Shown: positions 1 to 42,864, counted from the first letter of the stretch. The stretch: DNA of 64,000 nucleotides from Syntrophales bacterium (GCA_963666365.2 CAXXNF010000002.1:1600001-1664000); one strand, 5' to 3'. Program-made: numbers and translations. The notes: generated from the sequence alone by a model not told the origin.

Positions 1-505
1 GGAAACGATTCAAACTGTCGATCCGCCTTTTTCGAATGAGATTGTCCTGCACAAGATACATTATTGACGAGCAGCAGGCCAACGCAAAAAAAGCGCCGCC
101 CACAAGTGAACACACCACATGGATCGTCACCCATGACGCCTTGAGCGTATCGTGTATATGCACGGCGCCGATGACCCCCGCCGATGAGGCAATAGAAAGC
201 AGAAGCGCCAGCGGCGCCACAAAGGCCCCCAGTACCCGCGTCCTGGTCCTGGCCTGAAAGGCAAGATAGACCCCCGAAACGGCCCATGCAATAAATGACA
301 GGGCCTCAAAGGAATTGACCACGGGACTGTATCCGCTGTGCACCCATCGAATAATTATATAGGCAGTATGAAAACCGAAGGCGCCCGCAAGCACCCAGGT
401 GGCAGCCCTGGCGACGCCCACACGACGTACCACCAGCGAAGCGATGTAGGCAACCGTGCTGATCAGGTATACGACAAGGGCGCACTTAAAAATAATAATA
501 TCCAT
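1..505 (-). CDS. Cytochrome c biogenesis CcsA/HemX-family membrane protein (3' end outside window)
   Basis: Not in the ORF track because it runs off the edge. Manual translation from ATG 505: MDIIIFKCALVVYLIST...RWVHSGYSPVVNSFEALSFIAW...SWVTIHVVCSLVGG...MYLVQDNLIRKRR; hydrophobic with CcsA-like motifs; follows the siroheme synthase gene. Confidence 0.85.
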   Translation of the reverse strand, partial: MDIIIFKCALVVYLISTVAYIASLVVRRVGVARAATWVLAGAFGFHTAYIIIRWVHSGYSPVVNSFEALSFIAWAVSGVYLAFQARTRTRVLGAFVAPLALLLSIASSAGVIGAVHIHDTLKASWVTIHVVCSLVGGAFFALACCSSIMYLVQDNLIRKRRIDSLNRF

Positions 506-3706: not shown

Positions 3707-3782
3707 GGGTCGGTAGCTCAGTCGGTAGAGCACGGGACTGAAAATCCCGGTGTCGGCAGTTCGATTCTGCCCTGACCCACCA
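3707..3782 (+). tRNA. tRNA-Phe (GAA)
   Basis: 76 nt; acceptor stem GGGTCGG/CTGACCC, D-arm GCTCAGTCGGTAGAGC, anticodon loop CTGAAAA, TTCGATT T-loop, encoded CCA. Confidence 0.97.
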
Positions 3783-37755: not shown

Positions 37756-37820
37756 TAGAATAATTATCGAGCCAAGATTCAGTAACCGATACGCTTGTAT
37801 CTCTCCGAGGGAAAGGGCAT

Positions 37821-38243
37821 ATGCACGGCAAGACCATTGATGAGCTTACAGTAGACGATTATGAGGAGTTTGCGAAGACAATTTCCGAGGCAGACGTCTA
37901 TCTTTACGCGGGCATAAGCGGCGATCATAACCCGGCACACATTAACGAGGAGTACGCGAAACATACCTTTTTCAAGACCCGAACCGCACAGAGCATGCTT
38001 TCGGCCAGTTTTATTTCGGCGGTAATCGGCACGAAACTGCCGGGACCGGGGACCGTGTATCTCGACCAAACTCTCAAATTCCTTGCACCGGTACGGATAG
38101 GCGACACAATCGTCGCAAAGGTTGTAGTTATTGAAATCATGGTAGAAAAAAATAAGGTGCGCCTTAAAACCACCTGCACCAACCAGGATGGAGTTATCGT
38201 ACTGAGAGGAGAGGCCGTGGTAAGCCCTCCTACACCGATGTGA
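37821..38243 (+). CDS. MaoC/PhaJ-type (R)-specific enoyl-CoA hydratase
   Basis: SGDHNPAH catalytic Asp/His motif, LPGPG, FLAPVRIGD. Confidence 0.9.
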   Translation: MHGKTIDELTVDDYEEFAKTISEADVYLYAGISGDHNPAHINEEYAKHTFFKTRTAQSMLSASFISAVIGTKLPGPGTVYLDQTLKFLAPVRIGDTIVAKVVVIEIMVEKNKVRLKTTCTNQDGVIVLRGEAVVSPPTPM

Positions 38244-38309
38244 CAGAGACGCACTTCTTTATCGCAGGTTGACAACATAGCGGCTTCGACAAGAATGAGG
38301 AGGTATTTT

Positions 38310-40310
38310 ATGACATCTAATCAAAGATCATCCGTAAGGACAAGCGGCCACCCCGTGCTCCTTGGCACTATGCGGACAAAAAACAAGGTAGTAACGGCGG
38401 AAGAAGCCATTCAGCTGATCAATGACGGGGATACGGTCGCAACAAGCGGATTTTGCGGAAGCGCCTTTGCCGAAGAACTTGCGATCATGATCGAAGAGAC
38501 ATTCTTGAAAACCGGACATCCACGGGACTTAACCCTGATTTTTGCAGCCGGCCAGGGAGATGGCGGCGACAGAGGCCTCAATCACTTTGCCCGTGAAGGT
38601 CTCTTAAAGGGGTTTATAGGGGGGCACATGGGCCTTACCCCTAAACTGGGGAGAATGGCAACGGAAAACAAGATCATCGCCTACAATCTGCCTCAGGGAG
38701 TCATATCTCACATGTACAGAGATATCGCAGCCCATAAGCCAAGAACAATCACGAAAGTTGGGCTGGGAACATTTGTAGACCCGAGGAATGGCGGGGGAAA
38801 GGTAAATGATCTTACTAAAGATGAAATCGTGGAACTTGTCGAGTTTGATGGTATAGAGTATCTTGCCTATAAGCTCCGACCCATAAATGTCGGGCTTGTA
38901 CGAGGTACGACGGCCGATACCGACGGCAATATCACCATGGAAAGAGAGGCGTTGACCCTGGAAAACCTTTCCATTGCAACCTCCGTAAAAAATTCGAACG
39001 GCATTTTGATCGTACAGGTTGAAAGAATTGCCGAGAAGGGGACATTGGATGCCAGGCAAGTGAAGATACCGGGAATTATGGTGGATTGCGTAGTGGTGTC
39101 TCATCCGGAAAACCACTGGCAGACATTTGCAGAAATCTATAATCCTTCTTTCAGTTGCGAAACAAAAATTCCCCTGCAATCCATGCCTCCCATGGATATG
39201 GACGCGAGAAAGATCATCGCCCGCAGGGCGGCCTGCGAACTGAAGGCCAACGACATTGTCAACCTGGGAATCGGCATGCCCGAGGGGGTTGCCAATGTAG
39301 CCAACGAGGAAAAAATCCTTAATTATTTTACCCTTACCGCGGAGCCGGGCGTGATCGGGGGAGTGCCCGCAGGCGGATTGAACTTTGGCGCCGCCACCAA
39401 CACCGATTGTCTTATCGATCAGCCCTATCAATTCGATTTCTACGACGGCGGCGGTCTGGATATCACCTGCCTCGGCATGGCGGAAACAGACAAGGACGGC
39501 AACGTCAATGTGAGCAAGTTCGGCCCGAGGCTCGCGGGATGCGGAGGATTCATCAACATCAGCCAGACTGCCAAAAAATGCATATTCGTGGGGACCTTTA
39601 CGGCGGGGGGGCTGAAAGTGTCCGTAGACGATCACAAGCTTATCATTGATCAGGAAGGCAGAACAAAAAAGTTTGTCAATCAGGTCGAACATATGACCTT
39701 CGGCGGCAGGTACAGTGCCGAGCAGGGTCAGTATGTACGCTACGTGACCGAGAGGTGCGTCTTCTCGCTCACCAGTGCGGGAATGGAACTGATCGAAATT
39801 GCGCCGGGCATCGATCTTGAAAAAGATATTCTTGCGCTCATGGACTTTAAGCCCATAATAAAAAAATTGGCGCTGATGGATGAAAGGATCTTCTCTCCGG
39901 AACCGATGGGCCTTGAAAACGATCTTCTGAGCATACCGCTGGAAGAACGGCTCACCTATTATCCGGAAGAAAACCTCTTCTTCGTAAACTTTGAGGGATA
40001 TCACGTAAAATCCAGCCAGCAAATCCAGGATATCGATCGGGCAGTGCGGACCATCCTCGAACCGGTGGGTAAAAGGGTCTATACGATCGTCAATTACGAC
40101 AATTTCAACATCCTGCCGGATCTCATCGATGAATACACGGAACTCGTCAAGTATATAGTGGAAAAATTCTATGTCAACACAACGCGGTACACTACCAGCG
40201 CATTTGCGCGAATGAAACTGGGAGAGGCGCTTGCGGAAAAGAAGTTGATACCCCATATGTATGAGAGTAGAAAAGAAGCGGAAAAGGCGTTAAAAACAGC
40301 CGATTGTTAA
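38310..40310 (+). CDS. Family I acyl-CoA:acetate/propionate CoA-transferase (YdiF/Pct-type) with extra C-terminal domain
   Basis: AAGQGDG, YNLPQG, GLGTFVDPR, NLGIGMPE, TAEPG (catalytic Glu), GCGGFINISQ, YVTERCVF. Confidence 0.92.
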   Translation: MTSNQRSSVRTSGHPVLLGTMRTKNKVVTAEEAIQLINDGDTVATSGFCGSAFAEELAIMIEETFLKTGHPRDLTLIFAAGQGDGGDRGLNHFAREGLLKGFIGGHMGLTPKLGRMATENKIIAYNLPQGVISHMYRDIAAHKPRTITKVGLGTFVDPRNGGGKVNDLTKDEIVELVEFDGIEYLAYKLRPINVGLVRGTTADTDGNITMEREALTLENLSIATSVKNSNGILIVQVERIAEKGTLDARQVKIPGIMVDCVVVSHPENHWQTFAEIYNPSFSCETKIPLQSMPPMDMDARKIIARRAACELKANDIVNLGIGMPEGVANVANEEKILNYFTLTAEPGVIGGVPAGGLNFGAATNTDCLIDQPYQFDFYDGGGLDITCLGMAETDKDGNVNVSKFGPRLAGCGGFINISQTAKKCIFVGTFTAGGLKVSVDDHKLIIDQEGRTKKFVNQVEHMTFGGRYSAEQGQYVRYVTERCVFSLTSAGMELIEIAPGIDLEKDILALMDFKPIIKKLALMDERIFSPEPMGLENDLLSIPLEERLTYYPEENLFFVNFEGYHVKSSQQIQDIDRAVRTILEPVGKRVYTIVNYDNFNILPDLIDEYTELVKYIVEKFYVNTTRYTTSAFARMKLGEALAEKKLIPHMYESRKEAEKALKTADC

Positions 40311-40589: not shown

Positions 40590-41105
40590 ATGGCACTTAA
40601 GATAAAGAAGATTCTTTACGCAACGGATTTGTCACTGAATTCCGCTTACGCCTTTCGTTTCGCCGCGGATCTCGCAAAAAACCACAAAGCGGAAATAATT
40701 CTTCTCCATGTTGTTGAAAAACTCCCTCCTTCGCAAGAAGCATTGGTTAAATACTATATCGAAGATAAGGACCCGCGGCATTACGAGAAACTCATAGTAG
40801 ATTCGATAGCGCGTGCGAAAAAACGAATAGAAGTGTTCAGGAACAGGGAACTTTTAGAACATCCGGAAGTAATCAGTGAACATACCCACATAGAAGTAAT
40901 AGAAGGCTATCCTGCCATCGAGATTTTAGAGAAAGTCAAACAGTATGAATGTGATGTCATTGTCATGGGAACCCACGGCAAAGGATTCCTCAGCCACTCC
41001 CTGCTGGGAAGCGTGGCGGAAAGAGTCATGCGAAGGACCGACAAGCCGGTTACGATCGTTCCCCTGCCGGAGGGGAAAACGGATCTGTCAATTCCCGAAT
41101 TCTAA
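40590..41105 (+). CDS. Universal stress protein (UspA family)
   Basis: KILYATDLS, DVIVMGTHGKG, LLGSVAERV. Confidence 0.94.
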   Translation: MALKIKKILYATDLSLNSAYAFRFAADLAKNHKAEIILLHVVEKLPPSQEALVKYYIEDKDPRHYEKLIVDSIARAKKRIEVFRNRELLEHPEVISEHTHIEVIEGYPAIEILEKVKQYECDVIVMGTHGKGFLSHSLLGSVAERVMRRTDKPVTIVPLPEGKTDLSIPEF

Positions 41106-41134
41106 GAGCTCGGGGTTGCGTTATCAATTATATC

Positions 41135-41148
41135 ATCATCCAGATGAT
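41135..41148 (-). promoter_or_regulatory. Candidate bacterial SECIS hairpin
   Basis: AUCAUCUGGAUGAU stem-loop starting 17 nt downstream of the in-frame UGA at 41166-41168. Confidence 0.5.
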
Positions 41149-41576
41149 TAGGTGCCGGGGAACAGTCAGGTGTTGATCCCTTCCGCGACAAGACTTTCAT
41201 CCTGGTTTCTTATTCGCCATTTGTAGGTGATCAAACCGCCGCCTCGTTTGGATGCTTTTTTTGCGATCGGTTCAACCTCGGCCGAAATTCGATCGCCCGG
41301 CACTACCGGGGTCTTGAATGAAATGTCGGTGGCACCCGACCATACCGCATCGGCCAAGAATCCCTGCTTCGCCATTAAGCCCATCATACAGGCGATGAGA
41401 TACGCTCCCGGCGTCACCCGATCTTTAAAACCCCAGCCCCGTGCAAAATCCGCATTTAGAAATCCCGGAAGATCCATTCCCGACATCTGGGCCACCATAT
41501 CAATTTCCGTTCCTGTAATCGGCTTGGTCAAATTGGATTTATACACCCTGCCTTCTTCAATCTCGTCATACCGCAT
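41148..41576 (-). CDS. MaoC-like hotdog-fold protein, putative selenoprotein (ends 41166 if TGA is a stop; 41148 with Sec read-through)
   Basis: RVTPG, FKTPVVPGD, NQD hotdog motifs; AGGAGG RBS; ...AEGINT-TGA-LFPGT-TAA. The fold call is firm; Sec is inferred. Confidence 0.8.
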
Positions 41577-41677
41577 AAGAACACCTCCTTTTTAATTTGA
41601 TTGCCTGAATTCGATTTAATTGATCGTTCATGTCACGGATTTTATGCGTTCATTTATTTTTCTAAATCTTCTTTTCC

Positions 41678-42175
41678 GATATTGTCAACTATTTTGTGTG
41701 AAATTTATTTCTGCCAATTTTTTTAATGACGTCAGGTCCTCAGGCACCTTGCAACTGGGATTTGATCTCCAATGGACTTCCATCTTCAAACATACAAACG
41801 TAAGGAGCATATAGCAGGACCGTTCGCCGGCAAAGATCTCCATCGGCTTTGTCCTGCGTTTACACTCTTTGTTGACCCCTTCGATGACATTGGTCGTACG
41901 CAGGCATAACCATTTATCTTCCGGGAATTGTAAATAGGTGAGGCATGATTCCAACAAGTTTTCGAGACATTTTACCACAGATGGAATCTCTTGTTCCCAG
42001 GTATCCTTAAACTGTTCAAAGAATTCAAGGGCTTTTGCCTTTCAGGATACGTAAAACATGGAACGAACTTCATCCCCAATTTGCTCTTTCAGTTTTTTCG
42101 GAACCTTTGCCAATATGTTCCGCGCCACGTGGACCTGGCACTGCTGGGTCTTGGCTTTCGGAAACTCCTCTTTAT
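41678..42175 (-). mobile_element. IS256-family transposase remnant (C-terminal half plus right end)
   Basis: EEFPKAKTQQCQVHVARN (CxxH), in-frame TGA, LRTTNVIE...KRRTK; terminus GATATTGTCAACTATTTTGTGTGAA. Confidence 0.85.
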
Positions 42176-42864
42176 GGATGATTTCCCTGTACCCAGAAGA
42201 ACGTCCATCGCCCGGTAGAGATGCTGAAGATCAATCGGTTCAGGATTTCCCAAAGCAACATCTTCTCGGATCCAATCCTCAACACCGCCTTTGGAGTCGG
42301 GCGCCAAAGCCCGATTGGCCGTCATGGAAAGGCCGCCCACTCCACCGGCAACGTAAAGGACCTTCCCTTCAGACAATCTTTCAGAACCGCATGAAGGCTC
42401 AACCTCTCCCATAGTGAACGCAGAAGGTAGGCGCCGCCCTTCGGCACGCTTTTGAGGAAGGTCTGTGGAACGGTTTCCCCTTAGGAGATAGCCCGCGTCT
42501 GAATGGCCACTTCCGAGGAGAAAAAACGGCAAAGGCTTCGGGGCAATCTCTTGATTGCCGTCACATCCAGATCATCGGATCGGCCAAAGGTGTGTAGAAC
42601 GTTTGCCTTGGGCTGACCCGACTTGGAATCGCGGACATTGTGGGTGAGCTGAACGTAGGTCACGGTGGAGCCGTCTTTGTTTTTCCGGGACATCGTTCTT
42701 ACGTACATGTCTACTCCAATAACGTGCACGACCAGCGCCTTCAAGTAATAAAATCATATTCGCATCCCTACTCGTTTTTCGGTTTTTCGGATGTCAGACC
42801 AATGAATTTCAATAACTTGCGACGCCCAAAAGGCTAAAATATATTTACAATTGTCGAACCCGGG
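42176..42864 (-). mobile_element. IS1634-family-like transposase remnant (N-terminal part, frameshifted, plus left end)
   Basis: MYVRTMSRKNKDGSTVTYVQLTHNVRD..., ANRALAPDSK...QHLYRAMD in another frame; end-like TGTCGAACCCGGG. Confidence 0.75.

Follow-up and report, generated by a model that had tools for sequence, protein, structure and literature searches.

Does the TGA codon that appears to close a MaoC-like gene of a Syntrophales bacterium end translation, or does it encode selenocysteine (Sec)? The gene in question lies on the reverse strand of a stretch of 64,000 nucleotides (GCA_963666365.2, CAXXNF010000002.1:1600001-1664000; the window hereafter), part of contig 2 of a 4.0-Mb genome, and its product is predicted to adopt the hotdog fold of the (R)-specific enoyl-coenzyme A (CoA) hydratases. 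A first-pass annotation, made from the sequence alone, had proposed it as a new selenoprotein without the catalytic His, and had named what its homologues and genome ought then to show: TGA or cysteine (Cys) at this codon, an in-frame x-F-P continuation, a conserved hairpin, Sec machinery somewhere in the genome and a residue placed at the active site. From a comparison of this locus with its relatives we judge, with a probability of about 0.9, that this is a genuine Sec-encoding gene in which the TGA at 41166..41168 is read as selenocysteine.

The features of the gene, all on the reverse strand, are as follows. Ordinary gene callers report 136 codons at 41169..41576, a MaoC-like hotdog domain by its fold model and by its match to Pfam PF01575 (MaoC_dehydratas; 33.1 bits against a cut-off of 27). 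By reading of the sequence, it begins with an ATG at 41576..41574, 7 nucleotides behind a Shine-Dalgarno-like AAGGAGG at 41584..41590. The frame does halt at the TGA at 41166..41168, proposed residue 137 from the comparison of Sec and Cys relatives, and the read-through ending that had been put forward, U-LFPGT followed by TAA, is found in the sequence: five further codons, CTG TTC CCC GGC ACC (L F P G T; 41151..41165), whose conservation through synonymous codons in relatives is described below, lead to a TAA read from 41150 to 41148, the last base of which doubles as the first base of a short hairpin (41132..41148). The full proposed coding sequence (41148..41576) therefore has 142 codons and the TAA, with Sec as codon 137, and its read-through product aligns end to end with Cys-containing homologues of 142-147 amino acids.

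The comparison of codon 137 across relatives is the first line of evidence. We examined 129 loci, to which scans of genome contigs contributed 43 and scans of metagenome contigs 80; 2 of the 129 lack the motif, 3 run off the end of a contig and 1 contains an N, leaving 123 readable C-termini. The codon is TGA in 107 of these, TGC in 9 and TGT in 7; TAA, TAG, Trp or any residue other than Cys occurs in 0 of the 123. Counting distinct flanking sequences gives 90 (78 Sec forms, 12 Cys forms), and the TGA in the related loci is preceded by [N/S]-[T/S]. The same division is seen in proteins: a search returned 130 homologues, the majority of 134-136 amino acids ending in ..NT and a minority of 142-147 amino acids reading ..NT-C-[LI]-F-.., with ..NTC[LI].. 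present in 14 of the 24 database proteins inspected. The TGA aligns exactly with the invariant Cys of these long homologues. When 60 related genomes were searched in six frames, other families within the order yielded four orthologues of 71-76% identity; in all four the match contains one in-frame TGA and extends to residue 141. We also built an alignment, A4, of 81 rows, comprising the window and 80 of the 89 distinct relatives; nine near-duplicates were left out by eye (L091, L096, L097, L109, L116, L117, L119, L134 and L145). Column 137 is invariant in A4, where U is written as C, and Phe139 and Pro140 are nearly so.

If the UGA is recoded, the residues behind it should stay constant despite changes at third codon positions, and a mixture of stop codons should be found at the second stop and there alone; a real stop at codon 137 predicts neither. 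The 78 distinct Sec forms follow the former pattern. The first codon after the TGA encodes Leu, Ile or Met, the second encodes Phe in 77 of 78 (TTC 48, TTT 29) and the third Pro in 78 of 78 (CCC 41, CCG 20, CCT 13, CCA 4), so that the expected x-F-P continuation is kept through synonymous codons. The true stop follows 5 to 10 codons past the TGA and is TAA in 32, TAG in 16 and TGA in 30.

Downstream of the TGA stands a hairpin resembling a selenocysteine insertion sequence (SECIS) element. In the window it begins 17 nucleotides past the TGA, as the first-pass annotation had it; the 14-nucleotide string quoted there had lost its 3' arm, and the full element has a 6-bp stem (ATCATC/GATGAT) and a 5-nucleotide loop, UGGAU, which begins 23 nucleotides past the TGA. 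In 78 of 78 distinct Sec forms there is a stem of 5 bp or more, the loop of which begins 20-24 nucleotides past the TGA. Cys forms have no hairpin at that place; 3 of 12 have some hairpin within a wider range (loop start 14-34 nucleotides), of unrelated sequences, and one of the three is a terminator-like stem with a T-run behind it. The loop of the Sec forms nearly always carries a G followed by U or G (UGGAU, UGUAU, GUA, GUC, GGC, GUU, GCUU, AGUU). The distance of the hairpin is fixed relative to the UGA and not to the true stop, which lies before the hairpin in copies with 5-codon tails and inside it in those with 8-codon tails.

The two arms of the stem covary, as in the variants TCATC/GATGA, TCACC/GGTGA, TCGCC/GGCGA, CCATC/GATGG, CCGTC/GACGG and GCATC/GATGC. 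Covariation was scored on an alignment of 56 distinct sequences anchored on the hairpin (A3), which was used in place of a MAFFT alignment from the TGA (A2) that misplaced the 5' arm where the spacing is shorter. In A3, 92.3% of cells are paired, and both partners have changed in 5 of 7 pairs (31 cells). The covariation score of 0.276 compares with 0.150 ± 0.011 for 500 shuffles, a control that ignores kinship; 0 of 500 shuffles attain it, and shifting the register by 1-3 columns yields no more than 0.127. We also derived a covariance model (R1) from the family hairpins and ran it over both strands of 715 kb: it detects the element after the TGA in every Sec locus covered by the search, has no match at the gene end in the Cys loci covered and gives one off-target match on the gene strand above 20 bits. 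Its sole match in the window with an E-value below 1 is at 41130-41150 (reverse strand; 28.7 bits). The minimum free energy of the whole 50 nucleotides downstream does not separate the two forms, with a mean of -11.3 for both, the Cys forms folding otherwise, for example into terminators.

The means of decoding such a codon are present in this genome. Outside the window, selA (608 bits), selB (361 bits), selD (383 bits; contig 1, 483557-484486) and tRNA-Sec (76 bits) all score above their curated cut-offs; no sel genes were found within the 64 kb of the window, in agreement with the first-pass annotation. The selD gene itself contains one in-frame TGA, reading GAG-U-ACK, and the apical GGU loop of its hairpin begins 20 nucleotides after the UGA, a spacing like that of the hotdog gene. 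A reading of TGA as Trp or Gly, as in genetic codes 4 and 25, was rejected in view of the Cys of the homologues and the full Sec system of the genome.

The trait reaches beyond this tight family, and in one distant relative it is supported at the DNA level. In a profile search of 1.84 billion cluster representatives the family amounts to about one cluster at 50% identity (225 bits), and the next relatives score at most 114 bits. Of the next 149 representatives in order of score, 12 carry Cys at the position that aligns with codon 137 and 8 stop immediately before it, most of these cases lying near the top of the ranking; the 8, which end at the aligned ..NT, may be truncated selenoproteins. 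A ninth, P0148, ends one residue earlier in ..ENS and was binned as a fragment. The distant relative in question, L175 (genome G441), came from a second sample of the phylum searched with a profile of the distant forms and reads ..GHNV-TGA-LFKAE-stop, with a hairpin, read by eye, of 5 bp and a loop AGUUC starting 24 nucleotides after the TGA. Its closest relatives, L174 and L176 in two other genomes, read ..GINT-Cys-MFK...

What kind of protein would carry this residue? An AlphaFold2 model built from A4 has a predicted local distance difference test score (pLDDT) of 95.7, and it resembles the MaoC-like and PhaJ structures with Z scores of 16.7-18.7 and root-mean-square deviations (rmsd) of 1.8-2.3 over 131-140 residues: 4ffu (Z 18.7), 1q6w (18.6) and 3exz (18.6), all MaoC-like, and 1iq6, the PhaJ of A. 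caviae (Z 16.7, rmsd 2.1 over 131 residues, residues 3..140 of the model lying on 2..133 of the chain). The last strand of the model spans residues 129-139, which places codon 137 near its end and not, as had been supposed, in its middle. The hydratase motif is indeed replaced by GMDLPGF and the catalytic His is absent; in sequence alignments to 1q6w and 1iq6, the places of the catalytic Asp and His are taken by Met34 and Phe39, respectively. Phe39 is invariant in A4, and position 34 is Met, Leu or Ala among the rows inspected.

The part of PMC4823750 that deals with PhaJ gives its catalytic dyad as Asp31/His36 and the residues that set chain length as Leu65 and Val130. Because the numbers of model and PhaJ differ by 7 both at residue 128, once the chain index is corrected by one for the initial Met, and at residue 140, at the two ends of the last strand, Sec137 would correspond to Val130 and Met68 to Leu65. 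The placement of residue 137 at the active site thus agrees with the earlier proposal as far as alignment offsets go, the position being one that lines the pocket in the hydratase fold. The ordinary MaoC protein encoded in the window has Val at the place aligned with Sec137. Since residue 137 is invariant and occupies a position that lines the acyl pocket in PhaJ, Sec/Cys137 is the likely reactive group of the protein.

These observations lead us to propose the following scheme. The UGA at codon 137 would be recoded by SelA, SelB, SelD and tRNA-Sec, guided by a short hairpin with a G-containing apical loop 20-24 nucleotides on, which overlaps the true stop and the start of the 3' untranslated region (UTR). 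Translation beyond Sec would add the five residues L-F-P-G-T and give a 142-residue selenoprotein of the MaoC/hotdog type. Such a protein would keep the acyl-CoA-binding hotdog scaffold of the (R)-specific enoyl-CoA hydratases, both catalytic residues having been lost, and Sec/Cys137 might act on an enoyl- or acyl-CoA intermediate, as a nucleophile or as an acid-base group, in a short- or medium-chain pathway like beta-oxidation in syntrophic anaerobes. That Sec137 is the catalytic nucleophile is a tentative proposal, with the odds somewhat against it. Slightly less likely again is the wider idea that this is the first family of hotdog-fold selenoenzymes, in which a selenolate in the pocket (a thiolate in the Cys forms) would carry out covalent, non-redox chemistry on enoyl- or acyl-CoA thioesters, such as conjugate addition for double-bond isomerisation, in syntrophic beta-oxidation.

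The metabolic setting was surveyed in 66 loci of at least 6 kb. Cluster members of the crotonase-type hydratase and 3-hydroxyacyl-CoA dehydrogenase kinds, merged into one cluster through a fused FadB-like protein, occur at 17 of the 66 loci, acyl-CoA dehydrogenase at 14, thiolase at 8, acyl-CoA synthetase at 8, a B12-binding radical SAM protein at 6 and CoA-transferase at 4. The NCBIfam names of these neighbours are those of generic short-chain beta-oxidation, and no substrate can be named because the neighbouring acyl-CoA dehydrogenases score below every equivalog cut-off. In the closest relatives of the window the gene order acyl-CoA synthetase, B12-radical-SAM, hotdog, acyl-CoA dehydrogenase recurs. 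The B12-binding radical SAM gene stands immediately 5' of the hotdog gene in L052, L054, L055, L096, L100 and L101; its best NCBIfam matches are to BchE- and methyltransferase-type models, all below cut-off. The copies from Syntrophomonadaceae adjoin a HAD hydrolase instead.

In the window itself, an ordinary MaoC hydratase gene lies at 37764..38243 on the forward strand, with an intact SGDHNPAH motif. The first-pass annotation had rightly noted its presence; the C-terminus given for it was two residues short, and the actual end reads ...NQDGVIVLRGEAVVSPPTPM. This gene stands directly 5' of one for a 671-residue FadX-like acyl-CoA hydrolase/transferase (38295-40310, forward strand; 442 bits, below the cut-off of 750), and a distance of about 1-3 kb separates the two from the Sec hotdog gene, which is on the opposite strand. 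A convergent open reading frame (ORF) of 171 amino acids also flanks the hotdog gene and may encode a UspA-like protein. Directly 5' of the hotdog gene, at 41685-42744 on the reverse strand, are short ORFs of 87-147 amino acids that look by eye like pieces of transposases. The sole tRNA gene of the window is a tRNA-Phe (GAA) at 3707-3782 on the forward strand.

The family is rare: of 401 genomes drawn from across the phylum, 2 contain it at E ≤ 1e-30, and one of these is the genome to which the window belongs. Its carriers are labelled in databases as Syntrophales, Syntrophaceae, Smithella and Desulfobacteraceae, and as Syntrophomonadaceae of the Bacillota. A maximum-likelihood tree of the 81 rows was calculated from the part of the alignment that precedes position 137, with a midpoint root that serves for display alone. 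In it the 15 rows of Syntrophomonadaceae type form one clade (support 100/99) that lies within Thermodesulfobacteriota rows. To account for the 11 Cys rows on this tree, 4 changes of label are needed, at least 3 being required by well-supported branches. This pattern suggests that Sec and Cys have been exchanged repeatedly and that the gene has passed between phyla. The Syntrophomonadaceae copies (L068-L088 and related loci) keep both TGA and hairpin, with an 8-codon tail and the true stop inside the hairpin, which suggests that a selenoprotein gene was transferred between phyla together with its SECIS element.

Several points weigh against this interpretation and must be set beside it. The counts of loci are not independent, because many are near-copies or represent one contig held in two collections. 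Taken alone, the window hairpin is close to what chance would give (minimum free energy -6.5 kcal/mol, z = -0.18, 80 of 200 shuffles at least as stable), so that the case rests on comparison with the relatives. Even there, the inner five pairs of A3 are paired by construction, as A3 was anchored on hairpins selected by a script, and the presence of R1 matches in its training loci is circular, the model having been built from the same sequences, though its specificity remains informative. A scan of 40950-41350 against Rfam, at E-values up to 10, gave no SECIS family and one chance small-RNA match; such a miss says little, since bacterial SECIS elements are short and diverse. As to the protein, residue 137 was placed in the acyl pocket through alignment offsets and not coordinates, and there is no second conserved Cys, Cys63 being variable in A4; lacking a conserved partner Cys, the usual redox-motif argument for Sec does not apply. 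Finally, the window gene stands apart from the operon of its closest relatives and next to transposase-like fragments.

The alternative that survives best accepts the insertion of Sec and denies that the protein is an enzyme, making it an acyl-CoA-binding or partner subunit (like HadA/HadC or ChsH) or else a sensor of redox state or of CoA thiols, its Sec joined to CoA or to a partner in a selenenylsulfide. We regard this as unlikely, though it has a good deal to build on: the protein lacks both catalytic residues, its model has HadA and ChsH chains as structural neighbours (Z 15-16), the window contains an ordinary MaoC gene at a distance of 3 kb, and HadA is among the weak best NCBIfam matches. 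The HadA score of 22-32 bits, however, is far under the cut-off of 180, so that membership of that family is not supported, and no second member of the hotdog cluster adjoins the gene in any of the 66 mapped loci, where other small neighbouring ORFs were partly inspected. General experience with selenoproteins, moreover, is that invariant Sec/Cys positions are nearly always reactive-site residues.

A second alternative concerns the window copy and not the family, which would be real while this copy is stranded, poorly expressed or decaying after insertion-sequence activity cut it from its operon. The surroundings invite this view, for directly 5' of the gene there are only the transposase-like short ORFs, at the place where the closest relatives have acyl-CoA synthetase and B12-radical-SAM genes, and the acyl-CoA dehydrogenase gene downstream in those relatives belongs to the same arrangement. 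Yet the ORF, Sec codon, extension, hairpin and strong Shine-Dalgarno sequence are all intact and many relatives also lie outside such operons, and we consider decay of this copy quite improbable. That the TGA is an ordinary stop ending a 136-residue protein, with a regulatory or terminator hairpin 3' of it and the long Cys homologues as C-terminally extended variants, would suit the public annotations of 135-136 amino acids and a hairpin that stands at the gene's 3' end and is not unusually stable in the window copy, but is hardly credible when the short forms all stop with TGA (107 of 107) while the next downstream stop is mixed, when Phe and Pro are kept downstream through synonymous third positions, when the TGA falls exactly at the invariant Cys of the long forms, when the stem is AU-rich and without a T-run, with separate GC-rich terminator-like stems further on in several loci, and when the spacing of the hairpin is set from the TGA and not from the real stop.

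A genuine Sec-encoding gene being the reading that we prefer, we asked how far it is represented in existing inventories. No MaoC, hotdog or (R)-hydratase family appears in Table 1 of PMC13188914, the portion of that 2026 review, self-described as the most comprehensive inventory, that sets out 119 prokaryotic selenoprotein families and subfamilies. No MaoC, dehydratase or hotdog entry is found in the main text and four supplementary files of deep-Sep, nor in the main text of the ISME J 2016 paper, and a search of the literature linking selenoprotein or selenocysteine to MaoC, acyl dehydratase or hotdog gave nothing relevant, PMC12016498 mentioning selenocysteine and MaoC without connection. 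The family is thus absent from the selenoprotein lists covered, though a 'hypothetical' entry is possible in the supplements of 10.1101/2022.07.06.499078 and of older papers by Zhang and Gladyshev. NCBIfam release 20 has no dedicated model for it, the best match scoring 30 bits, and six homologues named by NCBI are annotated as 'MaoC family dehydratase' or similar at 135-136 amino acids. This therefore appears to be an unlisted selenoprotein family that annotation pipelines have missed. More than 100 database entries, named 'MaoC family dehydratase', appear to be truncated at 134-136 residues, and because they end before codon 137 the residue most likely to matter is missing from the records.

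The fold and the metabolic setting are both unusual for selenoproteins. Almost every prokaryotic selenoprotein known to us is a redox protein with either a thioredoxin-like fold or a metal site. Were Sec to line the acyl pocket of a hotdog protein that has lost its hydratase residues, this would point instead to selenium-based reactions of CoA thioesters, a kind of chemistry missing from current lists. The family occurs in genomes of Syntrophales type and of Syntrophomonadaceae, from anoxic methanogenic settings and often in beta-oxidation operons, and it may link the supply of selenium to the syntrophic degradation of fatty acids or aromatic compounds. Its natural Sec/Cys pairs and a very small hairpin that spans the stop should also be handy for studies of the advantage of Sec and of the minimal SECIS element.

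Among known systems, the (R)-specific enoyl-CoA hydratases and MaoC-like proteins (PF01575; PhaJ 1iq6; 1q6w, 4ffu, 3exz) are the nearest in structure, sharing the same single hotdog fold and domain match, and the Sec hotdog loci resemble them also in their neighbourhood of acyl-CoA metabolism. They differ in the residues that count: the Sec protein has Met34 and Phe39 for Asp and His, and Sec or Cys where PhaJ has the pocket residue Val130. We know of no selenoprotein among the (R)-hydratase and MaoC-like proteins compared. The HadA/HadC proteins of M. tuberculosis and the ChsH-type proteins are likewise hotdogs of the MaoC superfamily without the dyad, and near to the model in structure, but they are heterodimers with an adjacent catalytic subunit, of which no counterpart was seen at the Sec hotdog loci mapped, and have no Sec or Cys at this position.

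In its manner of decoding the gene falls in with known bacterial selenoprotein genes. Bacterial SECIS elements are in general hairpins bound by SelB that stand just 3' of the UGA and bear a G in a small apical loop. Genes of the fdhF and selD type likewise have an in-frame UGA, Cys-containing homologues and, some 20-24 nucleotides on, a small apical loop that contains G, mostly as GU or GG. The hotdog family departs from the known selenoproteins in having neither a UxxC/CxxU redox motif nor a thioredoxin-like fold, and in the economy of its design: the stem has only 5-10 bp, and the Sec is so near the C-terminus, at 5-10 codons, that the true stop and the 3' UTR are overlapped by the hairpin.

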